From positions 24,300 to 88,299 of the forward strand of contig DASRDY010000285.1 of NCBI GenBank assembly GCA_035652355.1: a DNA stretch of 64,000 nt. Reading direction: 5' to 3'. Below, piece by piece: positions 11,023-57,647 of the stretch. Positions within the stretch are counted from its first letter, which is position 1. Each line of letters begins with the position of its first letter. Below the pieces are notes generated by a model, which was given only the letters and a program-made list of their open reading frames with translations, did not search any database and was not told the origin of the DNA. The stretch comes from Blastocatellia bacterium. GTDB lineage: Bacteria; Acidobacteriota; Blastocatellia; DASRDY01. The position numbers and the translations under genes are program-made.

Positions 11023-11027
11023 AGGCA

Positions 11028-11104: not shown

Positions 11105-11116
11105 CGACCACCGTTT

Positions 11117-32471: not shown

Positions 32472-32677
32472 GCTATTTCACCTACACTACAAGGCAGATT
32501 CCAATTCTTTTCAGGTTGCAGGGATTCAGTGCTGTTGCTGTTCCCCTTCTTCTTTGTTTTCTGTTCGGGGCGACCCTGAACATAAACTTGCTTTCTGGTT
32601 CTCTCTCGAATACTTCTTTCGCGATCATCCCGCGATTTTGTTCGTAAACATTCGTTTCAAATAACGCGAATTCGCTG

Positions 32678-33859: not shown

Positions 33860-33876
33860 AACAGCAGTTGTCCCTT

Positions 33877-40558: not shown

Positions 40559-41533
40559 CTAACTGGCTAATCGCTTTGCCTCCAATTGTTGATAAACCGG
40601 CATTACCCATTTCTCAGTCATCTGGCGAACAAACTCTGATGCCTGTGATTGCTTTGCTTTGGTGTCGTCGGTGTACGGCGCGGATGGCCGCTTTGCGTGT
40701 AGAGTTGAAACCTTTTTCATAGCTTCGATCTCTTCGGCCGAAAATTCCGATCGAAAGACGGCTGGCAGATCCGTCAAGACAAAGTCAGGCAACTGTCGAT
40801 AATTTACCAGAACTGTTTTATCGTCGAGATGATCCAGACCGGCCTGACAGAATCGATTGAGACAAATAGCCAGATACTCTTCAAAGCGCATTTGAAAGAC
40901 AGACTGATAGTCTAATCCCAGGATTGCCGGATCGACCGCTGATGGCAGGAATTTCCCGGCAATTTCGTTCAGATTCGAAACCATTACCGGAACAGGATCG
41001 CGATAAAGGAATATTCTTGGGACATCAGGAAATGCCTGCTTGATCAATGGCAAATCAAGAACTGCCCAGTTATCGAACTTGACGAAGTAGCGATGCTCCT
41101 CACTGAATCGTTTTTGACCAAGAGCGCCTATAAGGCAGCGCAACAGCTCTACTCGTTGTTCATTTGAGAATTTCCTGGAACTTGCATTCGAACTGAAGAC
41201 CGCATCGACAATTTCCGGTTCCGAAATGACAACGTTTTGTGACGATGTTGCCAGCATCTGGGAGATTAACGTCGAGCCGCATCGAGACATATGGAAAATG
41301 AATCCAGTAGGCCGCAGTCCAGGATAGGTTTCGCAAAATTCCGTTAACTGCTCGATGCTTGTCTGATGCCTGAATAAAACATTGAACGGTCGTTGCAACA
41401 GCGACTCGACTGTGTCCTTGAAGAAAGGAAGCGTGAACCGCCTGTCGTAGGCGTAGCACCAATCAATCATTTGCTGCCCGTTCCTGGCATAAGATTGGAT
41501 TGGAATCCAACCTGCCAGCTGGTGGTGCTTCAC
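40559..41533 (-). CDS. Sulfotransferase-family protein (putative)
   Basis: PAPS-binding-like motifs are present: FHMSRCGSTLISQML (5'-PSB, RxGST) and FLYRDPVPVMVS (3'-PB, RDPxxxxxS). Its GTG start overlaps the upstream stop as GTGA. Confidence 0.6.
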   Translation of the reverse strand: MKHHQLAGWIPIQSYARNGQQMIDWCYAYDRRFTLPFFKDTVESLLQRPFNVLFRHQTSIEQLTEFCETYPGLRPTGFIFHMSRCGSTLISQMLATSSQNVVISEPEIVDAVFSSNASSRKFSNEQRVELLRCLIGALGQKRFSEEHRYFVKFDNWAVLDLPLIKQAFPDVPRIFLYRDPVPVMVSNLNEIAGKFLPSAVDPAILGLDYQSVFQMRFEEYLAICLNRFCQAGLDHLDDKTVLVNYRQLPDFVLTDLPAVFRSEFSAEEIEAMKKVSTLHAKRPSAPYTDDTKAKQSQASEFVRQMTEKWVMPVYQQLEAKRLAS

Positions 41534-41779: not shown

Positions 41780-42892
41780 TCAAATAAAACGATAACGCAA
41801 ACCCGGGTTGTTACCCAACGAGTACCTGAATTCTATTTCCGTTCCTTCTTTAATCTCGCCGATCTCGAATATTGGAGTTGGAAAGGTCAGCCAGCTTTCG
41901 TTTGTTCTGAGTTCGATTGATCCAAAAACTGTTATGCTTGTCAGGATCGCGACCTTCCGGTTTCCTGAGACGTCTTCGTTAATTCGGATTACAGCCGGAG
42001 GGAACGCTGCTCCATTGCCGTTGTTCAAGAGCGTCGGCATTTGCCCGGCGATTTCTTTATTAATCTCGAACGCCTTACCAAGGCTCACGATCGATTCTTC
42101 GGGGACTATCACTTTGTCTGGATCTGTTCCCGCGTCAGGTGATATTTCAGCCAGTCCAATGTCGAGAGTCACTTTTTCCGGAATCAGAATTCCATTGGTA
42201 GCGAGTTGCGGCACAAGATTGAGAGTGATTGCAACCTGAGGTTCTTTTATCAGCGCCTTTTGCATGGTTTCCGTGACTGCAATATGGAATAGGTCGTCAT
42301 TAGGATGGCGGTACTCGGCTGCGTCACAGCGTATAAAGCCCTTTATATAAGAAGAGATTCCCAGTGCATCAGCAATTGTGCGAACGCAATCCAGAGACTT
42401 TTGATGAATGTCAAGTAACGTGAACTGCACCTCATTAGCGCTGAACTTCGTAGTGAGCGGTATCGCCAGCGTCGCATAAGGTCCGCATCCAGCGTAGAGC
42501 ACGTGGATGACACTGGACGGAAATCGCTTTTGTGCTTCGACGATTGCGTCGTGCAGACCGCGAAGATACCGAGCAGTTCTTTCGTTATGAAATATACAAC
42601 GACCAGCACCTCTCGGAGACAACGCAAGCCCGTGATCAAGATAGGTGTCGGTGACATCTTCTTCTAACTCGCTGAACGCATCCAATCCTGTAATCTCGGA
42701 AAACAGTGTGTACAGACTGCCGATAGCGCAGTTCTTATCGCCGTCGGTGCTGTCCGGATCCAAGAGCGTATCGGTGGCCGTCTTCAGGATAAGCGCGCGT
42801 TCGTCTCTGCGATTGTTTATAGCCTCGTCCTTAATCGCAGCAGCTGATTCTGAAAGAGTATCTGTTCTTTCGTGTGATTTAACTGTAGTCAT
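41780..42892 (-). CDS. Class I SAM-dependent methyltransferase-like protein (putative)
   Basis: There is a motif I-like VLYAGCGPYATLAIPL, an acidic post-I FTLLDIHQKS, and VTETMQKALIKEP, which is reminiscent of the PRMT double-E loop. The start is uncertain (ATG 42892 or TTG 42979). Confidence 0.5.
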   Translation of the reverse strand: MTTVKSHERTDTLSESAAAIKDEAINNRRDERALILKTATDTLLDPDSTDGDKNCAIGSLYTLFSEITGLDAFSELEEDVTDTYLDHGLALSPRGAGRCIFHNERTARYLRGLHDAIVEAQKRFPSSVIHVLYAGCGPYATLAIPLTTKFSANEVQFTLLDIHQKSLDCVRTIADALGISSYIKGFIRCDAAEYRHPNDDLFHIAVTETMQKALIKEPQVAITLNLVPQLATNGILIPEKVTLDIGLAEISPDAGTDPDKVIVPEESIVSLGKAFEINKEIAGQMPTLLNNGNGAAFPPAVIRINEDVSGNRKVAILTSITVFGSIELRTNESWLTFPTPIFEIGEIKEGTEIEFRYSLGNNPGLRYRFI

Positions 42893-43141
42893 CCGAATCG
42901 AGTGAACCTCAAACTTTCCGCGAGCTTTTTGAGAATCAAGTTCGATGGCAGAATATCGTCTAAGATGTCTTTTAAGCAAGCGTTGGTATCAAATAAATAT
43001 AATTCAGTTTGTTCATCTGGATAATTTTGGTTTCGCGAGACTTTGATGCCGTCGCTATTGAATTTCACGCCGCAGGCATTCATAATCCGCACGTCTGCGC
43101 AGCAAGGTACTTCAAGTTGCGCATCGCTTTTCCTAAAGCGA

Positions 43142-43660
43142 ATGATTGTATCAGCGAAAAAGGATGCAGGTTTGTCAGACAGTCTAAGTCGAATTTCGCT
43201 TCGGCGGGCTCTTGTGGAAGACGAAGAATTCCTCTTTAAAGTATATGCTGCCACCCGTCGGGAAGAGATTGCGGGGTGGGGCCTGGATGCCGCGCAACAG
43301 GAGATGTTCCTGCGAATGCAGTTTCGCGCTCAACAATTTCAATACGAAGACTACGACGACTCCGGTAAATCTATCATCATGGAGGATGATGGCCCGATCG
43401 GTCGTCTAATTGTTAGTAGAAGCGAATCGGAGATCCACCTTGTAGATATTGCGTTGCTGCCCGAGCATCGGTCCGGCGGGATCGGCACAAAGATACTAGA
43501 AGATCTTTTTAATGAAGCTAGTGAAAGAAATATCCCGTTGCGCCTTGAAGTCTCAGCAGTCAACAGGGCGGCGGGGCTGTACAAAAGGCTTGGATTCCGG
43601 ATTGTTGATGAATCCGAAACTTATTTGAGGATGGAATGGAGATCGGCTGGCCAGTCTTAA
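43142..43660 (+). CDS. GNAT-family N-acetyltransferase
   Basis: The acetyl-CoA-binding pattern is DIALLPEHRSGGIGTKIL, with YKRLGF. It is paralogous to 44088..44567 (shared FLFKVY, MQFxAQ, IGRL, DIALLP.HR.SGIG). The start is uncertain (43142 ATG, 43172 TTG; the listed 43043 is probably too long). Confidence 0.75.
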   Translation: MIVSAKKDAGLSDSLSRISLRRALVEDEEFLFKVYAATRREEIAGWGLDAAQQEMFLRMQFRAQQFQYEDYDDSGKSIIMEDDGPIGRLIVSRSESEIHLVDIALLPEHRSGGIGTKILEDLFNEASERNIPLRLEVSAVNRAAGLYKRLGFRIVDESETYLRMEWRSAGQS

Positions 43661-43761
43661 GTAGTCGCGCTGGGTGCAGGCAATTGCGTTACCGACCGAT
43701 CCCGTTAAATGGCATAAACAGATAATAATGAAGGAAGGGAAAAGACTCGTCGTCAAGATCT

Positions 43762-44073
43762 ATGCTGGAAACATGTACACACTCAACATTTAATAATCTT
43801 ACGGACCGAAAGTTTACAATTTATCACGGTTCTGACCAGCCACTCGAGACAGAGTTGATCGAGGTAGGGGATTTGGTCGAAACCAACCGTCAGGAAATGT
43901 TTGCCATTTATTTCAGAGTTCCTGATGGCGTAATACCCGCCCAGGGTTCATACAAACTGGTGAATTCAGAATTAGGAGAACTTATCCTCTTGCTGGTGCC
44001 TGTTATTCATGACGAGTCTATTATTTATGAAGCAGTCTTTAACCGCCTGAAGAAAAAAAAACCGACGGCCTAA
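43762..44073 (+). CDS. Hypothetical 103-aa protein between the two GNAT genes
   Basis: The pattern F.I....D..LE.ELIEV.......RQEMFAIYF.VP....P.QGSYKL.N..LGEL.LLLVPV......IYEAVFN recalls a DUF (possibly DUF6916). I cannot verify the accession. Confidence 0.5.
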   Translation: MLETCTHSTFNNLTDRKFTIYHGSDQPLETELIEVGDLVETNRQEMFAIYFRVPDGVIPAQGSYKLVNSELGELILLLVPVIHDESIIYEAVFNRLKKKKPTA

Positions 44074-44087
44074 AACCCCCGAATCTC

Positions 44088-44567
44088 ATGAACATAAATT
44101 ATCGCCCTGTAACCGATAATGACAAGCAGTTCCTGTTTAAGGTGTACTGCTTCAGCCGAGCCGTGGAGATGGCTCAGGTCCCCTGGAGCGACGCGCAAAA
44201 GGAAGCCTTTTTGATGATGCAGTTTCAGGCGCAGTCTAGCCATTATCAGGAGTACTACCCCAACAGTGATCATAAAATAATCCTGCTGGATGACCAGGCG
44301 ATAGGTCGTCTCTATCTTGCGTACGAGGATGATCGAATCGAAATCCTTGATATTGCCCTCTTGCCTCAGCATCGCGGATCGGGGATTGGCAAAAGAATCA
44401 TTGGTGAGCTTACCCATCAGGCGGAAACCGCTGGTCTTCCTCTGTGTATTTATGTGGAAACGTTTAATCCGTCGGTAGGGATATTTGAACGGTTGGGATT
44501 TAGCCAGAAAGAGACTGACGGGGTGAACATTCGATTCGAATGGCGGCCAACGAGCAGGCTGTTGTAA
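44088..44567 (+). CDS. GNAT-family N-acetyltransferase (paralogue)
   Basis: DIALLPQHRGSGIGKRII and FERLGF are present. Clear paralogy with 43142..43660 supports the + strand over the overlapping minus-strand 171-aa ORF. Confidence 0.8.
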   Translation: MNINYRPVTDNDKQFLFKVYCFSRAVEMAQVPWSDAQKEAFLMMQFQAQSSHYQEYYPNSDHKIILLDDQAIGRLYLAYEDDRIEILDIALLPQHRGSGIGKRIIGELTHQAETAGLPLCIYVETFNPSVGIFERLGFSQKETDGVNIRFEWRPTSRLL

Positions 44568-44935
44568 CTCGACTTGAAATCGCAACGTCCAATTTGCGAG
44601 ACGGATTTTCTCATTTTTTCTTGCTTATTAGTTTTTTCGAAGTTAGAATCGCCGGGCTCAGGTAAAGGATTCCTAAAAAGCTCAAATTATATGGGCTATC
44701 GAATAGACCGTCGGATTGTAACTTGTAATTTAGATGGCCGTATTGCGCTTGAAGGAAAGGTACGGCAGTCTGCGGGCCTGCTCTCGCTGTTTGTAACAAC
44801 ATTGTCTGGTTCAGCGATGTCACTGTTTAGGGTGGCAGTTCTAACGATCTCGTAGTCAGGCACATCTCTTAGTTGAGAGCCGTACAACTTCCGGCCGTGT
44901 AAACGATTGTTTTGAAGGTTTGCGAATCCGGCCGC

Positions 44936-44965
44936 TTGACTTGAATTAATTGGTCGTAATAGAAT
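44936..44965 (+). promoter_or_regulatory. Candidate sigma70-type promoter about 230 nt upstream of the tail-collar genes
   Basis: TTGACT (44936-41) - 18 nt - TAGAAT (44960-65) lies inside a 627-nt non-coding gap. The call rests on sequence match only. Confidence 0.3.
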
Positions 44966-45194
44966 CGCGGCGGCTTGAATTCAGTCTCAGCCCTTGTCGG
45001 CTAGAAAGTGTGGAACGCGCCGACAATGGCTTCGTCATTTAACCCTGTATTTACTTCGGATTGCCCGCGAATGATAAAAGCTGAGGAACGGCTGACTCTC
45101 TCTGATCAATTAGGAAGGGTTATTTACATTATCAGAGATGCATTCGGGCCGGAAATCTCGCGGCAATAAAATTCAAGGCGGAGGAGAATAAAAA

Positions 45195-45719
45195 ATGAGC
45201 AGTCCATACGTTGGGGAGATCAGGATGTTTGGCGGTAGCTTCGCGCCGGTCGGCTGGGCATTGTGCCAGGGCCAGACGATTCCAATTTCGCAAAATGACA
45301 CGCTCTTTAACTTGATCGGCACTACATATGGTGGTGACGGGCAGGAAACGTTTGACCTTCCAAATCTTGCCGGCAGAGTGCCCGTTCACCAGGGACAAGG
45401 TCCTGGCATAAGTCAAAATTACGTAATCGGTGAGACGGGCGGCGTCGAAGGTGTCACTTTAACAACCCAGCAAATTCCCAACCATTCACACCTTCCCGCG
45501 TGCAATAACACCAGTGCTGGTGCCACTACGAACGGTGGGGTATGGGGAACTGCGCCGACGACCGCAAACACTTTTTACGGCCCAACTCCCGCTAACGTGG
45601 CGTTCAACGCGCAGGCGATTCAACCCCAGGGCGGCAGTCAACCGCACGAGAATATGCAGCCGTTTCTGGTTGTAACCTTCATTATCTCTTTATTTGGCAT
45701 CTTTCCGACACAGAATTAA
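45195..45719 (+). CDS. Phage tail-collar domain protein (COG4675 / MdpB-like), paralogue 1
   Basis: GGAGGAG RBS. N-terminus: PYVGEIRMFGGSFAPVGWALCQGQTIPISQNDTLFNLIGTTYGGDGQETFDLPNLAGRVP. C-terminus: GGSQPHENMQPFLVVTFIISLFGIFPTQN. Confidence 0.85.
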   Translation: MSSPYVGEIRMFGGSFAPVGWALCQGQTIPISQNDTLFNLIGTTYGGDGQETFDLPNLAGRVPVHQGQGPGISQNYVIGETGGVEGVTLTTQQIPNHSHLPACNNTSAGATTNGGVWGTAPTTANTFYGPTPANVAFNAQAIQPQGGSQPHENMQPFLVVTFIISLFGIFPTQN

Positions 45720-45775
45720 CGGAGTTGTTCAGGTGCTGAGGCGTTTCACATATAGAGTGCAATAGGAGAAACCAA

Positions 45776-46270
45776 ATGGGTACACCTTTTTTGGCAGAGA
45801 TGAGATTAATAAGTTTTAACTTTGCGCCCAAAGGCTGGGCCTTGTGCAATGGGCAATTGTTGCCAATTAATCAGAACCAGGCACTGTTTTCGATCCTGGG
45901 AACAACATACGGCGGGAATGGACAGACGACTTTCGCGCTCCCGGATTGCAGGAGTCGCGTTCCGATTCATACGGGACCGCAATTTAGTACCCTGGGGGAA
46001 AGGGGAGGTGAAGAATTTCATACTGTAATCCAGTCTGAGATGCCTGCGCATCTTCATTTCGTGCAGGCCAGCACTCTGGCCGCAAACGTCGCCAGCGAGA
46101 GTTCCGCTTTCTGGAGTACCACGACTGCATATGCGGGAGCACCCAATTCCACCATGGATCCTTCCTCCATTACAAGTATCGGAGGGTCTCAGCCGCACGA
46201 GAATCGGCAGCCTTATCTGGTGCTAAACATCATTATTGCGCTTCAGGGCGTCTTCCCAAGCAGAAATTAG
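45776..46270 (+). CDS. Phage tail-collar domain protein, paralogue 2
   Basis: AGGAGA RBS. N-terminus: FAPKGWALCNGQLLPINQNQALFSILGTTYGGNGQTTFALPD. C-terminus: GGSQPHENRQPYLVLNIIIALQGVFPSRN. Confidence 0.85.
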   Translation: MGTPFLAEMRLISFNFAPKGWALCNGQLLPINQNQALFSILGTTYGGNGQTTFALPDCRSRVPIHTGPQFSTLGERGGEEFHTVIQSEMPAHLHFVQASTLAANVASESSAFWSTTTAYAGAPNSTMDPSSITSIGGSQPHENRQPYLVLNIIIALQGVFPSRN

Positions 46271-46287
46271 AGAATAAGGAGAAAAAT

Positions 46288-46821
46288 ATGTCAGCTCCGT
46301 TCGTAGCCGAAATAAAAATGTGGGCCGGAAATTTTGCGCCCACCGGATATGCCTTATGTGACGGTCAGTTATTGCCGATCAGTCAAAACACCGCTCTTTT
46401 CTCTCTGCTTGGAACCTTTTATGGCGGTGACGGCAAGAGTACTTTTGCTCTGCCGAACATGCAGGACAGCGTTCCTATAAATCAGGGGCAAAGCTCTGCC
46501 AGCGGTACGGATTATTTTATCGGAGAGCAATCAGGGGTTCCGTTTGTAACATTGATAACGACCGAGATGCCTGTACACACGCATACGGCGCAGGGCGGTT
46601 CAAGCGGTACGAGCAACAACCCGCAAAGTCTCACTTGGGGGCAAATGGCAGTTGGCCGAACCGGCACTCCGCTGTATCAAAGCGCCAATACTAATCTGAC
46701 AACAATGAACCCGCAATCCTTAGGGATCGCCGGAGGCAGTCAACCGCATAATAATATGATGCCTTTTATTGTATTGACCTTTATTATCGCGCTTCAGGGT
46801 ATCTTTCCAGCGCGATCCTAG
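46288..46821 (+). CDS. Phage tail-collar domain protein, paralogue 3
   Basis: AAGGAGA RBS. N-terminus: FAPTGYALCDGQLLPISQNTALFSLLGTFYGGDGKSTFALPN. C-terminus: GGSQPHNNMMPFIVLTFIIALQGIFPARS. Confidence 0.85.
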   Translation: MSAPFVAEIKMWAGNFAPTGYALCDGQLLPISQNTALFSLLGTFYGGDGKSTFALPNMQDSVPINQGQSSASGTDYFIGEQSGVPFVTLITTEMPVHTHTAQGGSSGTSNNPQSLTWGQMAVGRTGTPLYQSANTNLTTMNPQSLGIAGGSQPHNNMMPFIVLTFIIALQGIFPARS

Positions 46822-47162
46822 CCGATCGGCGTTACGACGGTTGGGCCATTTTGTGAGGAGGGCGGTTTTCAGTGCGAACTGTTATTTTCGTGGATAAGTC
46901 GCCGCCTGGAACGCAAACAAGCGTGCCAGGTGGCTTCAATTATCGATCCGCCCAGCTCGACTCCCCAAACATTGTTCATTTAAGTCGCTGCGATTGTGTG
47001 GATCGCCGCAAGTCAAGACGCAAACTAAAAAAGGATATTGTCGGCTCGGCCTAATGGATCGGGATTGCTCTAGTCTGGTCCGGTTCCATATCCGTTGTTC
47101 GAGCCTCTGCGGTCGGTTCTGATTGCAGGAGTCGTTCTGTTTTATCGCATGAAGGAGATCAC

Positions 47163-50100
47163 ATGAAGACATTGATTCGTCGTTTTGGATTCACCAGATT
47201 TGTTGTTCTGACGTTATGCATTACGTTCGTGTTGGTGCTGGTCAAGCGTGAATCAATGGTCCTTGCAACCAGCCTGTTTCATGCGGCGACATCGGGTCGC
47301 ACCCAAACCAAGGACAATACCCAGGCTAAAGATCACACTCAGCTTAAAGTTCTGAGTTCTGTCAAAGTTCGGCCGACATCTATAGCGAAGCCGATGATCA
47401 AGCTTCAGGACAGTCGCGAGCTTTCATCTGACAGCGCGAGCGCTGTGGGTACATCGCATCAATCACTGGCGCTTAACTCGCCCATAGCAGGCTCGCTCAG
47501 ACCTGCCGATTCGATTTATAGTTCTCTGCGGCAAGCGGGCGCACGGCCGCTCGCCCTGGCGACTGCGGATATTAATCGGGACGGATTCCCCGATCTGATT
47601 ACAGGCTACGCGACTTCCGGGGGCGGAGTATTGATGTTGCGGTGGGCCAACGAGCAGGCCTATGCTCCCAGCGATCCGGCTGTCCTCGAAGGTATTAGAC
47701 AGCGCCGGTTTCCCAATCCATTCTTTGATGATGGGGCCACGATCGAACTGCCCGAAGCTCCTGATTTTGTATTAACCGGTGATTTCAACCATGACGGCAT
47801 AGTGGATGTTGTGGTTGCCGCCAAGGGCAGCAATGCGTTCTACCTCCTTGCGGGGGATGGACTGGGCGGATTTTCCGCTCCGACGCGCAAAGAATTGCCA
47901 GGCGCGGTAACGGCAATGACTGCGGGAGAGTTCGGCGCCCAGGATGGCTCGATGGACCTTGTTATAGGCGTCAATGGCTCCGGGGGATCTTCAGTACTGA
48001 TTTTCGATAAACACGAGAGCATTATCGATTCCACTCCTGAGGTTCGCGGTATATCAGGGTCGATCACGACATTGGCGCTGGGTTCACTTGATGGCGATCA
48101 ATTCAACGATCTTGCCATACTGGCGGGAGGCAGGCTGAGTGTTCTGCACGGCCAGGATCGCCTGGAAGGAGTGGATTCAGCAGCGACAGCCAGGCTTGAG
48201 AGCATTCCGTTATCGTTTGCTCCTAAATCATTTTCGCTGGGGAATTTCATCTGGGACCGTGAGGATAAGACTGAGATAGCCGTAATGTCGGCCGATAATC
48301 AGGTTCACATTCTTGCCCGCGGCAGTCTTGACGTTCGTCCCTTTACAGAAGAGGAAGTTCTGGCGAGTCGCAAGGACAAAGAAGCAAAAACCATTGCGAT
48401 GGCGAACGGTACTTATGTCGCGCCGGTTCTGAGCCAGTCGGCGGCAAACCAAAAATGGGCAATTGCGGAAGATGTTCCGGTTGAATCGACTGGAGTCGGC
48501 AATTCCGCGCCAATCCTGCTTACCACCAGAATGTCCTCCGTTCCTGCGGATGATCTGCTGGTCAAGGTTCCTGGCGGCACCCAAATTCAGGTTATGTACA
48601 AAGACACGAATCAGTCGGTAACTCGTAGCCGCACCAGCGGACGAGTGATGACTGGTAGAACTCCCGTGACGCTTGATTCAGCCAGCGAACCAGTCGCGGT
48701 ACTGCCGATGCGGGTCAATGTCGATGGTCGACCTGGTCTGGTTGTAATGAGCCAGGGTAATGTGACCGCTTCAGTTATAATGCCTGAAGGCGGCACCACC
48801 ATCACGGTCAACTCTGCCACGGACGTTATTCACAGTCCCGGATGCGCAACGACTGGCACAGGTACTTGTTCGCTCAGGGATGCGATTATCTTCTCGAACG
48901 CCGATACGGGCGCCGCAGATACGATTGTTTTCAGCGTTGGTATTAATCCAACTTTAACCATATCCAGTGGAGGCGCGGCGGAAAACAATGCGCAATCCGG
49001 AGATTTGGACATTAATCGCAGTGTTACCATAACCGGGAATGCTCCTACGACAGTCAGTACTACGTTCGATAATACCTGCGGCGACTGCAAGGTTTTCGGA
49101 ATCGATCAGACGGGTTTATTCCCTGGCGAGACTGTAAGTATGTCTGGTCTTACGATCCAGAATGGTGTTAATCACGGAAACGCAGGTTCGATTTGCGGTA
49201 CGTTCTTCGAAACGGGCGGCGGCATTGACGTCTTTTTCAAATCCTCTGGAAATTCCTTCACGTTGACGAATTCAACAGTAACAAACAATAGAACCGACCT
49301 TTGTGTGGCTGCCGGGCAGCATAGTCACGGCGGTGGCATCAACATCGATAGCAATAATCAGGCAATTGTAGGGGGCGCCAGCGCCGGTACGGCAACATTA
49401 ACTAATGTTACAGTCAGCAATAATATCGCGGGTCTTCAGGCTGGCGGAATTGGTCTTTTAGCGGACGTCCACAACGTGAACTTGACCAACGTTACAATAA
49501 CTGGCAACCAGAGCCAGCATTCAGATGGAGGCGGAGTATTCGTTTTACACAGCTTTGGTGGAACCGATACGTTTTCCAACGGATCGGTCTCGAGTAACAC
49601 GTCAGATGGGATAGGCGGTGGAGTTGAAATTGACGGTAATCAGGTAGTCAATTTTACAGGGACGACTTTTACCAGCAATACCGCCACTGGCACCGGCGCG
49701 AGTTCATTGGGCGGTGGGCTTGCCATTACCAACATTGGAGCGGCAGGCGTTACCGGAAGCACATCATTAACGAACTGCACCATAGATAGTAACCACGCCA
49801 ACAACGGCGCAAATTCAGGTGGTGGTGGTGTCTATTTCAACGGGGGTTACTCGTTGACTATTTCCGCCTGCGATATTAAAAACAACACCGGCGGTCAGGG
49901 TGGGGGTATTTTCAACGGTGGCAGCAACAGCTCGCCTGGCAGCACTGTAACGATAAATAATCTGACACTTATACACGGCAATTCAGCCGTCACCACTGGC
50001 GGTGGCAACGGAGATGGCGGAGGTATTGCAAACGGCCAAATCGGTGGAGCTGGGACTCAGTCTGGAACCATCGTAACCAAAACTCATATATTCGGAAACA

Positions 50101-53100
50101 CGGCGGCTAACAATGGTGGTGGTATCGCAGTTGGTCCTTTGACTAATGGAGCGACGTTTTCGATGAGCTTTAGCCGAATTGTTAATAACACTTCTAACGC
50201 TGCGACCAATCACGGAATCGAGGTTAATGGCACGAACGCAGTTGCGAGTGTGGCCGACAACTGGTGGGGTTGTTCGCAGAATCCGATCGGCAGTACTCAG
50301 TGCGACTCTGCGCACGCGACATCCGGAACGCTGACGGTTACCCCATTCCTGCAGATCACCAATTCGGCGGCGCAGAATCCGATTAAAGTTGGAGCAACCA
50401 CGACTCTGACTGCTACGGTTCAGGATTCGAACGGAATAAATCAGTCGTCAGCCAATTTGGACGTCTTTATTACCAGCAATGCAACCGCTGGAACCCCGTT
50501 GCCTGTAACCTGGAGCGCTGCGACAAACTCAATCACAATTGACGCGAACAGCTCGCCGCTTAAGAACGTCGGCGGAGTCGTTCAGGTGACGGCCACATAT
50601 AACGGGACAAATCCTGTGCATCATGATCCGGCGGCGGCCAAGGTCGATAACGATTTCACGACCGGATCGCATCCGAATGTGGTTTTGATGACTGTCCTCT
50701 CGCCGCCTAGCATTGCAAAAGCGTTCGGATCGCCAAATGTTGCGATAAACGGTGCACCAAACACGACGACTTTGACGTTTACGATAACAAACCCGAATGT
50801 GGGCGACGGGTTGAATGGACTTGCGTTTACAGATACCTTCGCGCCTGGCGCGGCAAATATCAAAGTCGCATCTCCGCCCAATGCATCGACCACTTGCGGC
50901 GGCGGAACGGTGACGGCGGTTGCAGGCTCAGGCTCCGTTTCATTGAGCGGTGGCACGATCGGCATAAATACTACTTGTACCGTTACCGTCACTGTTCAAG
51001 GCCAAGCTCCTGACGGTACAGCTAATAACACCAGCGGGAATGTTACGGCCACCGATGCGGGTGGTTTGACTGGCAACACTGCCAGTGCCAGCACGCTTGT
51101 GGCCGATGCGCCAACTATCGCAAAACTATTCGGCGCCGCTACAATACCGCTGAACGGCACCACGTCGTTGACATTCACTCTTCAGAATACGAACGCGAAT
51201 ACAGCGCTGAGCGGAGTCGCGTTTAGCGACACTCTGCCCGCTGGATTGACAGTCGCTACCCCAGGAAACCCGAGCACCAACTGCCCAGGCGGAACTGTTA
51301 CCGCTACGAATGGGTCATCGAGCATAACCCTCTCGGGTGCATCGCTCGCAACCGGGGCAACTTGCACTGCAACGGTTACCGTTCAGGGAACAACAGCCGG
51401 AGTGAAGAACAACACGGCATCCGCTTCATCTACGACTACGGGTGCTCTTACTAATTCGACAGGTACGGTTCCAATAACAGTTGTGGCGCCGCCGACGATC
51501 AGCAAGGCATTCGGTGCGCCCAGCATACCATTGAACGGCACGACAACGATGACCTTCACGATTACCAATCCGAATACCACGGTTGGTTTGAGTGGACTCG
51601 CATTTAGCGACACATTCCCATCAGGTCTGCAGGTGGCAGCGACACCGGGCGTGGTCAATAACTGCAACGGGACCTTCACTCCGGCAGCAGGTGATACTAC
51701 GGTCAGCCTCTCAGGAGGGACGGTCGGTACCAATACCTCCTGTACTATCACGGTTAATGTAACCGGAACAACAGCAGGTGCGATGGCGAATATAACCGGA
51801 GCGATTTCGTCGACCGAAGGCGGAACGGGCACAACCAGCAACACGGCAACGCTCAATGTGTTTGCGCCTCCTACAATTTCCAAGGCGTTTGGTGTCTCGA
51901 CGATAGCGGTCAATGGTACGACATCTCTCACCTTCACAATTACAAACCCGGCCTCGAATCCAGGGGCATTGACAGGTATTGGTTTTACCGATTCTCTGCC
52001 TGCGGGACTGGTGGTCGCGACGCCTAATGGGTTGTCAAACACTTGTAATGGTACAGTGACGGCGGTCGCCGGATCAGGTTCGATAACCCTGAATAACAAC
52101 GGCAGCATCACCACTCCTGGTACTACCTGTACGATCCAGGTAAATGTTACCGGCACCACTTCCGGGGTGAAAAACAACACAACCGGTGCTATATCATCGA
52201 CCAATGGCGGAACCGGCGCAACCAGTAACACTGCCACTTTGACGGTCGCATCGCCGCCGACTATTAGCAAGGCTTTCGGCGCGGCGACGATTCCGCTAAA
52301 CGGCACAACGTCAATGACGTTCACGATCAGCAATCCAAACTCGATTGGACTAACCGGTCTTGCGGTTTCGGATACTCTTCCGGCAGGTTTGGTTGTTGCA
52401 ACTCCGAACAACCTGAGCAATTCATGTAATGGCAGCGTGACGGCTACATCGGGTACAAATTCGGTGAGCCTGTCTGGCGGCACGATAGCGGCCAGTCCTG
52501 CTACCTGTACAGTGTCTGTAGATGTTCAGGGCACAACGGCCGGTGTGAAGAGCAACACTACTACCGCAATCACTTCTACTGAAAGCGGACCCGGCACAAC
52601 CAGCAACACCGCGACAGTAACAGTGGTAGCACCGCCTACAATCAGCAAGGCGTTCGGCGCTGCCAGTGTGGCGGTCAATGGCAGCACGACGTTGACATTC
52701 ACGATAAGTAATCCTAACGCTACAGTCAGCCTGACGGGCCTGGCATTTAATGACAGCTTCCCGTCGGGTCTTCAGGTAGCATCGACACCTGGCGTCGTCA
52801 ACAACTGCGGTGGGACCTTTACTGCGAATGCTAATGCGACATCTGTGAGCCTGTCGGGTGGCACGGTTGGTACTGGCGGGTCGTCGACTTGTACAATAAC
52901 AGTCAATGTTACCGGTACATCGGCAGGCGCGAAGGCCAATACTACTGGCGCAGTCTCCTCGACTGAGGGCGGAACCGGCGCAGTCAGCAACACCGCGACA
53001 CTAAACGTGTTTGCTCCGCCGACGATCAGCAAAGCATTTGGTACTAGTCAGGTCCCGCTCGGTGGAACTACGACCCTGACCTTTACGATCACTAATCCGG

Positions 53101-56100
53101 CGGCTAATCCCGGTGGGCTAACAGGAATCGGCTTCACGGATACGCTGCCAGCGGGGCTTGTTGTCGGAACGCCGAACAATCTCTCGAACACCTGCAGCGG
53201 TACCGTAACCGCGACTGCCGGGTCGAGTTCGATATCCCTTAATAACAACGGCAGCATCGCTACGCCGGGGAATACCTGTACGATTCAGGTAGATGTGACG
53301 GGAACTACCTCGGGAGTGAAAAACAATACCACAGCCGCGATTACATCGACCAATGGCGGCACAGGCGCAACCAGCAATACCGCGACGCTGACGGTGGCGT
53401 CCCCGCCGGTCATCTCGAAGTCGTTTACTCCTTCGACGGTAGGGGTAAATGGTTTCTCGAGCCTGTCATTTACCATTCAAAATAACAACAATGCGGGTTC
53501 GCTGACTGGTGTAGGCTTCACCGACAATCTGCCTGCAAACCTGGTTGTGTTCACTCCGAATGGATTATCGGGAAGCTGCGGAGGCGGCACAATCAGCGCA
53601 GTGGCGGGATCATCGACGATCAGCCTTACGAATGCGACTCTGCCTGCAAGCAGCAGTTGTACTTTCTCTGTTGCTGTAACGCCGGAAACGGTCGGGACAT
53701 TCAACAACACAACAACTAATGTTACATCCAACGAGGCAGGCAACGGCAATCAGGCCAGCGCCACGCTTACCTCGCTGAATCCTCCTAGCATTGCCAAGTT
53801 CTTTGGCGCTCCGCGCATCGATGTGGGAACTTCCACTTCTCTGACTTTCCAGATCGACAACTTCAACGGCGCTGATTCTCTTACGGGAGTGCACTTCCTG
53901 GATACTTTGCCTTCAGGTTTGAGGGTAGCTACTCCCAATGGCGTAAGCGGCAACTGCGGTGGTGTGGTTGTTGCGAATGCGGGATCCAGCACGATCAGCC
54001 TGACGAACGGTAGTCTTGCGCCCGGGGCTAATTGCAGCTTCAGCGTCAATGTCACGGCAATCAGCGGAGGCACTCAGGTCAACGTCACTGGCAACGTCAT
54101 TTCCACCAATGGCGGCTCGGGCAACACAGCCACTGCTCAGATCGATACCTGCAGTTATGTGGTCTCACCAGTTTCGCTGTCATACCCAATATCGGGTGGC
54201 ACGGGCACGGTGACAGTGACGCCCAACATCGGGACCTGTTCATGGACAGCAGTCAGCAATGACAGCTTTGTCCACATTACCAGTGGAGCCGGACCAACAA
54301 CTGGCAACGGCAGTGTGCAGTTCACTGTCGACAACTCAGGCGGCACACCAAGAACCGGAACGATGACCATTGCCACAAACACCGTGGTGGTGGATCAGAC
54401 CAATCCGACTGCGATCAATCTCAACAGCTTCACCGCCACCAAGATCGGATCGGCAACGCTGCTGAAGTGGCAGACCGGTATGGAAGTTCACAACCTTGGT
54501 TTCAACATCTACCGGGATGACAATGGTCAGAAGGTGCAGATCAATCCTTCTCTGATTGCCGGATCAGCACTGAGAGTGGGAATGAATACCAACGTGCAGT
54601 CAGGCTTCGGCTACTCCTGGGTTGATCATTCGGGCGGCGGCAGCTACTACCTTGAAGACGTCGATCTCAACGGCACCAGCACCCTGCACGGACCGTTCAG
54701 TGCCACATCGGGCACTGCAGATTTGACCGCCAATTCGATGATGCTCTCAGAGGTCAACAGCGCCGCGGCACAGAGCTATTCACTGCAGCGAGGCTATCCT
54801 GCAGGAGTGGAGATCAGCTCAGGCAGTGCGTCCTCTGCTGATACGACTGCAAGAACAGCGGGAAGAAGCCCGAACCGACCCGCGACTGTCAGCAACGCAC
54901 TGAAGAAGCAGTGGTCGATAGCTTCGCAATCGGCAGTGAAGATCGGAGTGAACAAGACGGGCTGGTATCAAGTCAATGCTGTTGATCTGTTCACGGCGGG
55001 ACTCGACACCGCCGCGAAACCCGGCAACCTGCAGATGTTTGTGGGCGGAGCAGAGGTACCGATCAAGGTCAATGCCGCCAGTTCGGATCATCTGTCAGTG
55101 GGAGACACAATCGAGTTCTACGGAGCTGCGCTTGATACTACTACCGCCAATACCCGGGTCTACTGGCTGACATCAGGAACTTCAGCAGGCAGACGAGTGG
55201 GCAGTGTCACTGCCTCGGCAAGCTCAGGTAATGGCGGATCATTCGCTTACACCGTGGAGCGGCAGGACAAGAGCATCTACTTCTCCGGTCTGCTCAATGG
55301 AGAGGCCGAGAACTGGTTTGGCGCCCTGGTTAACACCACTCCCGCAACACAGAACCTGACCATCAACCATCTGGATCAGAACTCCGCTGATCCTGCTGTG
55401 ATAGAGGTAGGGCTGCAGGGAGCGACAGGATCGCTGCACAACGTGACGGTGATGCTGAACGGAACAGCGATTCAGAACATCAACTTCAACGGACAGGCGC
55501 ATCAGGTGGTACAGATAGAAGTACCGCAAAGTGGGCTGGTTGAAGGCAATAACACGGTAAGCCTTGCTGCTGCGGCAGGCGGAGACATCTCGCTGGTGGA
55601 TTATGTGAAGATTACCTACGCACACAGCTATCAGGCAGAGAACAACAGCCTGTTCACCAACGTACCGGCCAATCAGGCGGTGAGCATCACAGGCTTCACA
55701 TCGAATCAGATCAGAGCCATCGATGTCAGCAATCCACTGCAACCACTGGAACTGCAGGGAGCGATAGATACATCGGATGCGAATATCTCCACGATCAGCC
55801 TGGTTACCGGCAAACAGAGCAACCTGATTGCGTTCACGCCCGATCAGATGCTCAGTCCGGTGTCTATCACCGCAAACAATCCTTCATCTCTCAATCAAGG
55901 AGGAGCGGGAGCCAACCTGGTGATCATCGGCTACAGAGACTTCCTGCAGAGCGTACAGCCGCTGGTGGCGCTAAAACAGAGCCAGGGCTACGCGGTAGCA
56001 GTAGTGGATGTAGAGGACATCTACGATGAGTTCAGCTATGGAGTGCATTCGCCACAGGCGGTGAAGGACTTCCTCAGCTGGAGCTATCTGCACTGGCAGA

Positions 56101-56924
56101 AGCAGCCACAGTACGTGATGCTGGCGGGAGACGCTTCATACGATCCGAAGGGTTATCTGGGACTGGGCAATCAGGACTTCGTGCCGACGAAGCTGATAGA
56201 CACTGCCAATATGGAGACAGCCAGTGACGGCTGGCTGGTGGATTTCAACAATGATGGCACAGAGCAGATGGCCATAGGCCGACTACCGGTACGAACAGCG
56301 GCGGATGCCACGGCAATGGTCAACAAGATCGTTGCCTACGAGCAGACAGGCACAGCGCAGACGATGGTGCTGGTGTCAGACCTTAACGATGGGCTGGACT
56401 TTGCGGCAAGCAATGCTCAGATCGGAGCAATGGCGCCGTCGCAGATGTCTGTAGTCAATATAGTGAGAGGACAGACAACAACAGATGCCAGGACGGAATT
56501 GCTGGATCAATTGTCGCAGGGTGGCCGAATAGTGAACTATGCGGGACACGGGTCGGTGAACCTGTGGCGAGGGAATCTGCTGACGAACGATGATATGTCT
56601 GTGCTAACCAACAGCAAGACATCGGCGCTGGTAGTGACAATGACCTGTCTGAACGCCTATTCACTGGATTCGAGACTGCCAAGCCTTGGAGAAGCGTTGC
56701 TGAACGTAAAACAAGGCGGAGCAGTATCGGTGTGGGCATCGACAGCAATGACCGATATGAGCAACCAGAGCGGAATGAACCAGGCGTTGTTCCGGCAGTT
56801 GCTGGGAAACAGTCAGATCACCATAGGAGACGCGATCAGAACAGCGAAGAAGACAGAGCCGAATAATGATGTAAGAAGGAGCTGGATGCTGTTCGGCGAT
56901 CCGACAATGAAGATAAAGCAGTAG
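47163..56924 (+). CDS. Giant (3253 aa) secreted/anchored protein: FG-GAP propeller + beta-helix + 9 DUF11-like repeats + BACON-like domain + C-terminal peptidase C25 (gingipain-like) domain
   Basis: AAGGAG RBS. The N-terminal anchor is FVVLTLCITFVLVLV. FG-GAP/VCBS-type blades are present (DINRDGFPDLITG, GDFNHDGIVDVVVAA, LDGDQFNDLAIL). The hallmark CSLRDAIIFSNADTGAADTIVF is followed by G-rich beta-helix turns. Nine ~127-aa repeats follow, then CSYVVSP..GGTGTVTVTPNIGTCSWTAVSND (BACON-like). The C25-like end has VIIGYRDFLQSVQPLVALKQSQGYAVAVVDVEDIYDEFSYG, YAGHGSVNLW (His) and LVVTMTCLNAY (Cys). Confidence 0.85.
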   Translation: MKTLIRRFGFTRFVVLTLCITFVLVLVKRESMVLATSLFHAATSGRTQTKDNTQAKDHTQLKVLSSVKVRPTSIAKPMIKLQDSRELSSDSASAVGTSHQSLALNSPIAGSLRPADSIYSSLRQAGARPLALATADINRDGFPDLITGYATSGGGVLMLRWANEQAYAPSDPAVLEGIRQRRFPNPFFDDGATIELPEAPDFVLTGDFNHDGIVDVVVAAKGSNAFYLLAGDGLGGFSAPTRKELPGAVTAMTAGEFGAQDGSMDLVIGVNGSGGSSVLIFDKHESIIDSTPEVRGISGSITTLALGSLDGDQFNDLAILAGGRLSVLHGQDRLEGVDSAATARLESIPLSFAPKSFSLGNFIWDREDKTEIAVMSADNQVHILARGSLDVRPFTEEEVLASRKDKEAKTIAMANGTYVAPVLSQSAANQKWAIAEDVPVESTGVGNSAPILLTTRMSSVPADDLLVKVPGGTQIQVMYKDTNQSVTRSRTSGRVMTGRTPVTLDSASEPVAVLPMRVNVDGRPGLVVMSQGNVTASVIMPEGGTTITVNSATDVIHSPGCATTGTGTCSLRDAIIFSNADTGAADTIVFSVGINPTLTISSGGAAENNAQSGDLDINRSVTITGNAPTTVSTTFDNTCGDCKVFGIDQTGLFPGETVSMSGLTIQNGVNHGNAGSICGTFFETGGGIDVFFKSSGNSFTLTNSTVTNNRTDLCVAAGQHSHGGGINIDSNNQAIVGGASAGTATLTNVTVSNNIAGLQAGGIGLLADVHNVNLTNVTITGNQSQHSDGGGVFVLHSFGGTDTFSNGSVSSNTSDGIGGGVEIDGNQVVNFTGTTFTSNTATGTGASSLGGGLAITNIGAAGVTGSTSLTNCTIDSNHANNGANSGGGGVYFNGGYSLTISACDIKNNTGGQGGGIFNGGSNSSPGSTVTINNLTLIHGNSAVTTGGGNGDGGGIANGQIGGAGTQSGTIVTKTHIFGNTAANNGGGIAVGPLTNGATFSMSFSRIVNNTSNAATNHGIEVNGTNAVASVADNWWGCSQNPIGSTQCDSAHATSGTLTVTPFLQITNSAAQNPIKVGATTTLTATVQDSNGINQSSANLDVFITSNATAGTPLPVTWSAATNSITIDANSSPLKNVGGVVQVTATYNGTNPVHHDPAAAKVDNDFTTGSHPNVVLMTVLSPPSIAKAFGSPNVAINGAPNTTTLTFTITNPNVGDGLNGLAFTDTFAPGAANIKVASPPNASTTCGGGTVTAVAGSGSVSLSGGTIGINTTCTVTVTVQGQAPDGTANNTSGNVTATDAGGLTGNTASASTLVADAPTIAKLFGAATIPLNGTTSLTFTLQNTNANTALSGVAFSDTLPAGLTVATPGNPSTNCPGGTVTATNGSSSITLSGASLATGATCTATVTVQGTTAGVKNNTASASSTTTGALTNSTGTVPITVVAPPTISKAFGAPSIPLNGTTTMTFTITNPNTTVGLSGLAFSDTFPSGLQVAATPGVVNNCNGTFTPAAGDTTVSLSGGTVGTNTSCTITVNVTGTTAGAMANITGAISSTEGGTGTTSNTATLNVFAPPTISKAFGVSTIAVNGTTSLTFTITNPASNPGALTGIGFTDSLPAGLVVATPNGLSNTCNGTVTAVAGSGSITLNNNGSITTPGTTCTIQVNVTGTTSGVKNNTTGAISSTNGGTGATSNTATLTVASPPTISKAFGAATIPLNGTTSMTFTISNPNSIGLTGLAVSDTLPAGLVVATPNNLSNSCNGSVTATSGTNSVSLSGGTIAASPATCTVSVDVQGTTAGVKSNTTTAITSTESGPGTTSNTATVTVVAPPTISKAFGAASVAVNGSTTLTFTISNPNATVSLTGLAFNDSFPSGLQVASTPGVVNNCGGTFTANANATSVSLSGGTVGTGGSSTCTITVNVTGTSAGAKANTTGAVSSTEGGTGAVSNTATLNVFAPPTISKAFGTSQVPLGGTTTLTFTITNPAANPGGLTGIGFTDTLPAGLVVGTPNNLSNTCSGTVTATAGSSSISLNNNGSIATPGNTCTIQVDVTGTTSGVKNNTTAAITSTNGGTGATSNTATLTVASPPVISKSFTPSTVGVNGFSSLSFTIQNNNNAGSLTGVGFTDNLPANLVVFTPNGLSGSCGGGTISAVAGSSTISLTNATLPASSSCTFSVAVTPETVGTFNNTTTNVTSNEAGNGNQASATLTSLNPPSIAKFFGAPRIDVGTSTSLTFQIDNFNGADSLTGVHFLDTLPSGLRVATPNGVSGNCGGVVVANAGSSTISLTNGSLAPGANCSFSVNVTAISGGTQVNVTGNVISTNGGSGNTATAQIDTCSYVVSPVSLSYPISGGTGTVTVTPNIGTCSWTAVSNDSFVHITSGAGPTTGNGSVQFTVDNSGGTPRTGTMTIATNTVVVDQTNPTAINLNSFTATKIGSATLLKWQTGMEVHNLGFNIYRDDNGQKVQINPSLIAGSALRVGMNTNVQSGFGYSWVDHSGGGSYYLEDVDLNGTSTLHGPFSATSGTADLTANSMMLSEVNSAAAQSYSLQRGYPAGVEISSGSASSADTTARTAGRSPNRPATVSNALKKQWSIASQSAVKIGVNKTGWYQVNAVDLFTAGLDTAAKPGNLQMFVGGAEVPIKVNAASSDHLSVGDTIEFYGAALDTTTANTRVYWLTSGTSAGRRVGSVTASASSGNGGSFAYTVERQDKSIYFSGLLNGEAENWFGALVNTTPATQNLTINHLDQNSADPAVIEVGLQGATGSLHNVTVMLNGTAIQNINFNGQAHQVVQIEVPQSGLVEGNNTVSLAAAAGGDISLVDYVKITYAHSYQAENNSLFTNVPANQAVSITGFTSNQIRAIDVSNPLQPLELQGAIDTSDANISTISLVTGKQSNLIAFTPDQMLSPVSITANNPSSLNQGGAGANLVIIGYRDFLQSVQPLVALKQSQGYAVAVVDVEDIYDEFSYGVHSPQAVKDFLSWSYLHWQKQPQYVMLAGDASYDPKGYLGLGNQDFVPTKLIDTANMETASDGWLVDFNNDGTEQMAIGRLPVRTAADATAMVNKIVAYEQTGTAQTMVLVSDLNDGLDFAASNAQIGAMAPSQMSVVNIVRGQTTTDARTELLDQLSQGGRIVNYAGHGSVNLWRGNLLTNDDMSVLTNSKTSALVVTMTCLNAYSLDSRLPSLGEALLNVKQGGAVSVWASTAMTDMSNQSGMNQALFRQLLGNSQITIGDAIRTAKKTEPNNDVRRSWMLFGDPTMKIKQ
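50703..54147 (+). repeat. Nine in-frame tandem coding repeats of ~381 nt (~127 aa) inside the giant gene
   Basis: Each unit reads PPxIxKxFG..(I/V)..NG.T.LTFTIxNPN...LTGxxFxDxLPxGLxVATPxxxxxxCxGTVTAxxGxxxIxLxxGxIxxxxxCTxxVxVxGTxxGxxxNxTxxxxSxxGGxGxxSNTATLxV, with one conserved Cys pair. Units 3/6 and 4/7 are much more alike than neighbouring units. Confidence 0.85.
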
Positions 56925-56933
56925 CGCACCCGG

Positions 56934-57024
56934 GAGCGCAGGCATCCTGCCTGATTGGCATCCGTAGTAGCGTTAATTTTGAAATCGCCAGTCCCGAGGG
57001 CCAGCAGGCAGGACGCCTGGGCTC
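56934..57024. repeat. Imperfect 20-nt inverted repeat bracketing ~50 nt between the giant gene and the Cys-rich peptide gene
   Basis: GAGCGCAGGCATCCTGCCTG (56934-53) against the reverse complement of CAGGCAGGACGCCTGGGCTC (57005-24) matches 17/20. Each arm can also form its own hairpin (CAGGCA-tcc-TGCCTG; CAGGC-aggac-GCCTG). Confidence 0.5.
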
Positions 57025-57060
57025 TCAGGACTGCGCGTAACAGATCGGAATGGAGCAGAT

Positions 57061-57537: not shown

Positions 57538-57560
57538 AATAACATTACCTGCTCCTTGCC

Positions 57561-57598
57561 ACGCAACAGGGACCTTGTGGGTGCCCTGTTGCGTTTTT
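57561..57598 (+). terminator. Rho-independent terminator
   Basis: ACGCAACAGGG (57561-71) - 12-nt loop - CCCTGTTGCGT (57584-94) is followed by TTTTT. It sits 24 nt after the stop at 57537. Confidence 0.8.
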
Positions 57599-57647
57599 CC
57601 TCCTACCAATCTGCGTAACTAACGAACTGCAAATCGCCGAATACCTG

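Follow-up and report, generated by a model that had tools for sequence, protein, structure and literature searches.

A 64,000-nucleotide (nt) stretch of the Blastocatellia bacterium contig DASRDY010000285.1 (hereafter the window, meaning the whole stretch) encodes, at positions 45,195 to 46,821, three consecutive proteins with a phage tail-collar domain. These three genes belong to a conserved chromosomal, non-phage module, and their products fall into three collar orthogroups, termed A, B and C, each of which contributes one member to nearly every related locus. Beside them lie genes for GNAT acetyltransferases, for a small protein of the DUF6916 family and for a giant exoprotein. The best explanation of the data as a whole, which we favour with moderate confidence, is that A, B and C form an obligate fibre-tip heterotrimer, with the giant exoprotein as its partner in surface recognition.

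Three tandem collar genes

The triplet is a tight, co-directional array that reads A-B-C, with one member per orthogroup:

45195..45719, plus strand: collar protein, orthogroup A; 174 amino acids (aa); Pfam Collar
45776..46270, plus strand: collar protein, orthogroup B; 164 aa; Pfam Collar
46288..46821, plus strand: collar protein, orthogroup C; 177 aa; Pfam Collar
Layout of collar A: N-terminal collar domain; PxHxH motif at residues 95-99; variable head at about residues 101-145; C-terminal GGSQPHxN...FP block

The genes are separated by spacers of 56 nt (A-B) and 17 nt (B-C), and in the sequence GGAGG, AGGAG or AAGGAG motifs sit 6-9 nt 5' of each collar ATG. All three proteins match the full 57-residue profile of Pfam Collar (PF07484) over residues 7-63, with E values of 2.7e-27, 6.9e-27 and 6.9e-26 for A, B and C, respectively. 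In pairwise alignments the paralogues are 43-47% identical and display both signature blocks, FAPxGW/YALCxGQ...TFxLP at the N terminus and GGSQPHxN...FP at the C terminus. An earlier note on this DNA had described the three tandem genes, their spacers and ribosome-binding sites and both terminal signatures, and it is borne out by the open reading frames (ORFs), Pfam and alignment. Its further statement that some 70 central residues are unrelated holds only in part. A divergent middle does exist, but it is limited to about 45 residues (approximately 101-145, 15-29% identity), whereas residues 64-100 keep the invariant positions G67, G79, E80, G83 and T88 together with a P95-x-H97-x-H99 motif. 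This motif is invariant in the three window proteins and 30 homologues, and PxHxH is conserved across all three orthogroups. No signal peptide was found in window collars A, B and C, as the earlier note had said; the collar domain begins at residue 4-8.

In the phage proteins T4 gp12 and gp37, HxH motifs coordinate metal ions on the trimer axis. Comparison of the family profile with solved structures retrieved the long tail fibre 8kec (E 2e-8), the short fibre T4 gp12 (E 1e-4) and a further tail fibre, 9qgo (E 6e-4, residues 7-151), and the PxHxH of the family aligns with LPSHQH in 8kec and IPYHYH in 9qgo. The window proteins are homologous to phage fibre tips and, because the family profile matches such solved tips, we regard them as tip-only modules of collar plus head, devoid of a shaft. 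NCBIfam holds no family matching the collar proteins or DUF6916; close homologues of the window collars are named 'microcystin-dependent protein' by the Joint Genome Institute (COG4675/MdpB).

A fixed set of one A, one B and one C

Of at least 597 loci (one genome per species), we analysed the 80 nearest to collar A; A is therefore present by construction, but B and C are not. These best 80 loci share 53-66% identity with collar A and come from Acidobacteriota, Alpha-, Beta- and Gammaproteobacteria, Actinomycetota, Bacteroidota, Chloroflexota, Verrucomicrobiota, Cyanobacteria, Bacillota, Saccharimonadales, Eremiobacterota and Methylomirabilis. The related loci (n = 84, designated by L numbers) span more than 10 phyla, and the collar family gives at least 8000 matches in a protein search.

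Exactly three collar ORFs occur in 77 of 85 sequences (84 loci plus the window) and six in another 4 of the 85. Average-linkage clustering of 256 full-length collar proteins yields three groups with 87, 84 and 83 members, each marked by signature residues of its own within the conserved scaffold. Nearly every locus holds one A, one B and one C, the few exceptions lying mostly at contig ends. Identity amounts to 59-61% inside an orthogroup and to 47-50% between orthogroups. The collar order per locus is BAC in 51 cases, ABC in 17 (including the window), ACB in 7, CAB in 1 and BACBAC in 1; neighbouring collar genes lie a median of 15 nt apart, and 91% of the gaps do not exceed 60 nt. Judged by these sequences, the triplet is ancient and not a local feature. 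A fixed one-of-each set is what would be expected of an obligate heterotrimer, since independent units should drift in copy number, and the size of the set equals the number of chains in the fold.

For such an assembly there is a precedent. Three consecutive PF07484 proteins of the virophage DSLV2 (QIG59353-59355) co-purify in a 1:1:1 ratio (J Virol 2025, PMC12724248). This collar heterotrimer runs at ~55 kDa on native polyacrylamide gel electrophoresis, forms 16-nm fibres and binds Synechococcus cells, its proposed ligand being lipopolysaccharide (LPS; PMC12724248). From the strict one-of-each composition, taken together with this analogy, we infer that the window proteins probably form an A:B:C heterotrimer, an idea that the earlier note had raised and that gains support in this way.

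One locus departs from the pattern of divergent middles. At L091 (198-2037), a triplet encodes 183-aa collar proteins whose middle segments, unlike those of the window, are almost identical to one another, pointing to a recent duplication or to gene conversion in this lineage.

The module around the triplet

The following window genes accompany the triplet:

43043..43660, plus strand: GNAT acetyltransferase 1; 205 aa as listed; Acetyltransf_7, E 3e-11
43762..44073, plus strand: DUF6916 protein, short form without export signal; 103 aa; PF21880, E 2.8e-16
44088..44567, plus strand: GNAT acetyltransferase 2; 159 aa
47163..56924, plus strand: giant exoprotein; 3253 aa; begins 341 nt downstream of the triplet; C-terminal Peptidase_C25
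40559..41533, minus strand: sulfotransferase (Sulfotransfer_3); possible accessory gene, membership in the module uncertain

ORFs and Pfam agree with the earlier description of flanking GNAT genes, a 103-aa ORF and a 3253-aa protein. Two GNAT genes and one DUF6916 gene (43043-44567) are thus located at most 3 kb from the window triplet. We assessed such partners at the 57 loci whose flanks each extend over 4 kb or more, counting genes within 3 kb. Of these loci, 46 have a GNAT gene, 43 a DUF6916 gene and 51 a long ORF (800 aa or more) that mostly shares the strand of the triplet; just two loci lack all three. Genes called on metagenome contigs show the same layout, and so do annotated replicons: Rhizobium bangladeshense p5 encodes an Ig-domain protein, three proteins annotated 'tail fiber', an N-acetyltransferase with an overlapping gene and a hypothetical protein of 97 aa, and the layout recurs in the Ruegeria sp. 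TM1040 megaplasmid and in Paenibacillus amylolyticus, with the GNAT gene overlapping a collar gene. In the reverse direction, five of five DUF6916 proteins, chosen by the length of their contigs and without regard to collars, adjoin three collar genes, a GNAT gene and a giant gene. Beyond these partners, no gene family was found to be widely common to the loci; a sulfotransferase and a Methyltransf_28/TPR protein occur in a few. Conserved synteny of the collars with GNAT, the 103-aa ORF (now DUF6916) and a giant surface protein, as the earlier note had anticipated, therefore extends across phyla.

Pfam searches with essentially all window ORFs of at least 150 aa revealed no gene for capsid, tail, terminase or integrase proteins, in line with what the earlier note had claimed. 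The matches obtained are to transporters, tRNA-modifying enzymes, 2-oxoglutarate dehydrogenase, PilB/PilC-type ATPase and platform proteins and peptidases, and a few ORFs of this size lack any Pfam match. The G+C content is flat across the window (0.48-0.55). An exact protein match assigns the window to a metagenome-assembled genome of Blastocatellia (Acidobacteriota). Neither a phage or tailocin tail cluster nor a fibre shaft is present in the window or the related loci, and in more than 80 loci the module sits among housekeeping genes. Collar loci number 13 in 2.9 million viral contigs versus at least 597 in genomes. Phage homologues exist, at ~39% identity, and carry a single collar per phage record (top 25 matches listed), whereas three are found in 40 of the 72 plasmid records listed. 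The earlier note had named an adjoining prophage and a lack of synteny in relatives as grounds for giving up its non-phage assignment; the window has no adjacent prophage and the synteny is conserved, so that this assignment stands.

DUF6916 proteins occur in two forms. One is ~100 aa long and lacks a signal, as in the window, where it is predicted to adopt a six-stranded split beta-barrel; the other comprises ~150-230 aa and starts with a clear twin-arginine translocation (Tat) signal (for example MSISRRKFLRSG). Tat-signal paralogues are present in ~25 collar loci, often convergent with GNAT (for example at L072 8510-9166 and L003 8588-9088, and further at L062, L076, L056 and L032). The family forms 6,356 clusters at 50% identity in a library of 1.84 billion proteins, and no mention of it was found in the literature searched. 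Speculatively, DUF6916 might serve as an assembly chaperone or as an export carrier.

GNAT 1 and GNAT 2 of the window share 40% identity, and their matches to solved GNATs are weak and generic. The true start of GNAT 1 is probably later than listed, because its similarity to GNAT 2 begins near 43190. In all three orthogroups, ~90% of the collar members have the N terminus M-[S/A/G]-x-P-[F/Y]. Since a GNAT gene overlaps a collar gene and the small second residue is conserved, acetylation of the collar N terminus suggests itself; that GNAT may acetylate these conserved N termini is a speculative proposal drawn from sequence.

Further observations concern the immediate surroundings. Genes of the Sulfotransfer_3 type lie in or beside the module also at L001, L003, L013 and L037, and may encode an optional tailoring enzyme. 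Directly 3' of the triplet, a ~540-aa Methyltransf_28 plus TPR protein is encoded at L011 (4498-6123) and also at L021, L039, L050, L053 and L105; it is a trait of several loci with ABC order and DUF7933 giants and does not follow the window triplet. In the window, a non-coding gap of 627 nt (44568-45194) separates GNAT 2 from collar A; the gap measures 266 nt in the close relative L004. It contains a promoter-like site at 44936-44965, and such sites occur at chance frequency in the region. Promoter and terminator scans around the module returned signals at chance level only, and Rfam gave nothing significant over positions 42500-58000, the gap included.

Giant exoproteins and collar order

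The giant of the window consists of a signal-peptide-like N terminus, FG-GAP repeats, a beta-helix-like region at about residues 586-843, at least nine DUF7933/DUF11 repeats and the C-terminal Peptidase_C25. Across the loci the giants are heterogeneous and feature Big_9/cadherin, He_PIG, DUF11/DUF7933, FG-GAP and beta-helix domains. With domain content varying to this extent, the proposal of the earlier note that a C25-type giant is the conserved partner could not be upheld. About half of the loci, 43 across phyla, have giants with a ~630-aa domain that has no Pfam model and is composed of an Ig-like part followed by a right-handed beta-helix (for example L008 7662-9479, L004 12768-14819 and the L065 C terminus). 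This domain is C-terminal if the giant gene lies upstream of the triplet and occupies about residues 300-1000 if it lies downstream.

Collar order co-varies with the class of giant. Giants with the ~630-aa domain accompany 39 of the 51 BAC loci; DUF7933-repeat giants accompany 9 of the 17 ABC loci, none of which carries the ~630-aa domain. We regard this co-diversification as the best evidence that triplet and giant work together and are not merely side by side. The giant of Dyadobacter fermentans ends in a tail typical of the type IX secretion system, which implies that at least this giant is exported to the surface. Of 58 giants, 50 were flagged by a crude signal-peptide heuristic, which carries little weight because it responds to 33% of ordinary ORFs and to 17% of collar proteins as well. 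A single docking domain shared by all giants was considered and rejected, as in a BLAST comparison of the termini the N-terminal cluster proved to be generic Big_9/cadherin repeats.

The variable head and the site of action

Within the orthogroups the scaffold is well conserved (identity 0.72-0.79; collar part 0.76-0.79). In the head, residues 101-145, identity is 0.25 within and 0.22 between orthogroups. Collar paralogues of Solibacter have been reported to be under positive selection (PMC3174227). A hypervariable head and such selection fit an outward-facing binding surface, and the collar fold is known only from outward-facing binding tips.

Several further observations point in this direction. 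Two Bacteroidota-like contigs from IMG/VR, L090 (2099-3968) and L092 (1148-3018), hold triplets of ~203-aa collar proteins, each with a Sec signal peptide, and a collar protein was detected in the exoproteome of Ruegeria pomeroyi (PMC4949626). The Sec-signal triplets, the Tat-signal DUF6916 paralogues, the exoproteome and the fold together suggest that the collar proteins act outside the cytoplasm; such indirect signs of export would fit the cell-surface or contact-dependent role put forward in the earlier note. At L090 and L092 the Sec signals are near-identical (MKKQI...SQ), another signal-peptide protein follows, and the proteins do not sort cleanly into A, B and C. COG4675 proteins have also been detected in soil metaproteomes.

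Proposed mechanism and alternative explanations

In the mechanism that we propose, the window genes would encode the A, B and C subunits of a module made up of three collars, one or two GNATs, one or two DUF6916 proteins and a giant secreted repeat or beta-helix protein. The three chains would fold 1:1:1 into one intertwined trimer of the T4 gp12/gp37 type, in which the conserved N- and C-terminal blocks form the collar and six histidines from the three HxH motifs hold one putative metal ion. Three different hypervariable segments of ~45 residues would then create an asymmetric binding head, and the tip would act outside the cytoplasm with the neighbouring giant to recognize a surface ligand, for which a glycan such as LPS or exopolysaccharide is the likeliest candidate. 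We infer export, a physical or functional tie to the giant and this kind of ligand from the evidence above, and a surface-recognition role together with the giant appears to be the best-supported mechanism.

A number of points weigh against this mechanism. All solved relatives are homotrimers, and since each window chain has the full motif set, homotrimers are chemically possible. Collar A, B and C, the GNATs and the short DUF6916 lack an export signal, the window has no Tat-form DUF6916, and exoproteome detection can reflect cell lysis. As to the giant, 6 of the 57 loci have no large neighbour, no single domain is common to the giants of all loci, and residues 586-843 of the window giant align to the beta-helix of the ~630-aa domain at profile level only (hhalign 90%, E 1.6e-6). 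The collar statistics describe the A-like subfamily rather than all COG4675 proteins. Finally, the AlphaFold2 monomer of collar A, computed from a 30-sequence alignment, is uninformative either way (pLDDT 48), as is unsurprising for an intertwined trimer with a shallow alignment.

The lack of signals could mean that a trimer of any composition works in the cytoplasm with GNAT and the short DUF6916, perhaps in metal binding or linked to modification, and that adjacency to the giant reflects co-regulation. None of the 256 A, B or C proteins has a credible N-terminal signal, the collar domain starting at residue 4-8, and the GNATs and short DUF6916 are likewise signal-less. Nevertheless, we consider a cytoplasmic role unlikely in view of the Sec-signal triplets on Bacteroidota-like contigs, the Tat-signal DUF6916 paralogues in the module, the exoproteome of R. 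pomeroyi (PMC4949626), a fold known only as an extracellular receptor-binding tip, and a hypervariable head that, with the positive selection in Solibacter (PMC3174227), fits a surface facing outwards.

Alternatively, the genes might encode three independent gp12-like homotrimers with three binding specificities, united only by common regulation. This would accord with the solved relatives, all homotrimeric, and with the retention of every conserved motif, including HxH, in each window protein; moreover, the near-identical middles at L091 look like recent duplication rather than fixed distinct roles. Independent gain and loss would be expected of such units, yet 77 of the 85 sequences have exactly three collars, one per orthogroup, and doubled loci read BACBAC. 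Orthologues across phyla (59-61%) are more alike than paralogues in one genome (43-50%), group-specific residues lie in the conserved scaffold and not in the head alone, and the virophage triplet was shown to be heterotrimeric (PMC12724248). We rate three homotrimers as improbable, a shade below a cytoplasmic role.

That the triplet consists of leftover or domesticated tail-fibre genes of a degraded prophage, without a dedicated cellular function, is very improbable and already largely refuted: the phage-derived names of the Pfam family and in NCBI ('tail fiber protein', 'phage tail protein'), the real phage homologues at ~39% identity and the Caulobacter K31 collar triplet listed as a 'phage region' (PMC4221894) are outweighed by a 64-kb window with flat G+C content and no phage structural, terminase or integrase gene, by a module set among housekeeping genes in more than 80 loci and more than 10 phyla, by the scarcity of such loci in viral contigs, and by intact ORFs with strong ribosome-binding sites and purifying conservation.

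Combining the A:B:C heterotrimer with the speculative roles of its small partners leads to a broader proposal, which is possible but rather doubtful. Many phyla would use a domesticated, tip-only fibre head, obligately A:B:C, as an exchangeable recognition unit of giant adhesins or enzymes. DUF6916 would act as an assembly chaperone or as a Tat 'hitchhiker' carrier for a metal-bound trimer that folds in the cytoplasm and lacks a signal of its own, and GNAT would acetylate the N termini of this trimer; the whole could be the bacterial counterpart, or the source, of the virophage tripartite fibre.

Other genes in the window

Directly after the giant gene, a 158-aa ORF (57061-57537, plus strand) encodes a PqqD-like domain (E 5e-8), an internal twin-arginine-like motif (SRRQMLKAAG) and then a Cys-rich C terminus (CLPTSAGCTISAQCCSGICSGGACA). 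It resembles a peptide-chaperone domain fused to a Cys-rich peptide and was not seen at other collar loci. Directly upstream of GNAT 1, a 399-aa ORF (41780-42979, minus strand) has no Pfam match; by eye it shows a Rossmann-like 'VLYAGCGPYA', and no similarity to the Methyltransf_28/TPR protein of other ABC-type loci was found. A 1445-aa surface-type protein (4220-8557, plus strand) with Beta_helix, Big_3_5 and DUF11 domains is encoded 37 kb from the triplet, without adjoining collar genes. The region 10216-14224 (plus strand) contains a CbbQ/NorQ-type AAA ATPase next to a 1035-aa VWA-domain protein, a typical MoxR-like pair unrelated to the triplet. A T2SSF (PilC-like) gene and two T2SSE (PilB/PilT-like) genes at 31245-35649 (minus strand) form a type IV pilus or type II secretion cluster ~10 kb upstream of the module. 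Among the window ORFs of at least 150 aa, no Pfam match to the LuxR/LuxI family was obtained.

Significance

A chromosomal bacterial collar module that includes GNAT, DUF6916 and a giant exoprotein has apparently not been described in the literature searched; a heterotrimeric collar tip is already known. The module is very common and spans Acidobacteriota, Proteobacteria, Actinomycetota, Bacteroidota, Chloroflexota, Cyanobacteria, Verrucomicrobiota, Bacillota and candidate phyla. Non-prophage collar genes are commonly annotated as 'tail fiber protein' and taken for phage remnants, which distorts prophage calls and hides a cellular system. If the heterotrimer and its tie to the giant hold true, DUF6916 and COG4675 would gain a function, and the long-standing puzzle of the COG4675 proteins RhiB and MrpB would gain context. 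The triplet would also offer a tractable model for an asymmetric site built from three fixed paralogues, with Ruegeria sp. TM1040, Dyadobacter fermentans and Rhizobium bangladeshense as candidates. The broader proposal, if correct, would amount to a previously undescribed class of bacterial cell-surface recognition system.

Comparison with known systems

With tips of the T4 gp12/gp37 type (PDB 1ocy, 5iv5, 8kec and 9qgo), the window proteins share the collar domain, the PxHxH motif and a variable, in phage receptor-binding, region between conserved N- and C-terminal collar strands. Phage tips are homotrimers, sit on a long shaft and are parts of a baseplate or tail. The window proteins, in contrast, are tip-only (164-177 aa), come as three fixed paralogues and lack a tail on which they could sit.

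A further parallel is the globular head of complement C1q, in which paralogous chains from tandem genes form a heterotrimer and each chain contributes different binding properties. The proposed tip would likewise be a heterotrimeric recognition head of three paralogous chains with different binding per chain; fold and lineage of C1q are unrelated, which makes it a working analogy only.

Among bacterial, non-phage collar proteins of the COG4675/MdpB type, to which the window proteins belong, RhiB of Rhizobium is a known member (PMC6969944), and MrpB of Microcystis was placed with the family by its similarity to RhiB (PMC3328848). Of the products of the pRL10 rhi region, RhiB is a distant match to the collar profile (E 3e-9), and neither RhiA nor RhiC is recognized by it. 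We considered rhiABC as an equivalent triplet and rejected it: because only RhiB matches the profile, rhiABC is a different arrangement, with a single collar gene under quorum-sensing (LuxR/LuxI) control and no GNAT, DUF6916 or giant neighbour, where the window has three collar genes. In Acaryochloris marina, AM1_3686-3690 encode an acetyltransferase, a conserved hypothetical protein and three collar proteins; these genes are co-induced, and in two strains they are among those with the strongest induction under low far-red light (PMC11633204).

The closest comparison is with the virophage DSLV2. Its genes adjoin capsid genes (minor capsid) and form the virion attachment fibre, whereas the window triplet is chromosomal, lies in a window where neither capsid nor further viral genes were found, and has GNAT, DUF6916 and a giant exoprotein as its partners. 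The 1:1:1 heterotrimer was shown experimentally for DSLV2; for the window proteins it is suggested indirectly by the one-of-each composition of the loci. Common to both are three consecutive, co-directional PF07484 genes of similar length, each encoding a collar plus a variable head, with a combined mass of ~58 kDa in DSLV2.

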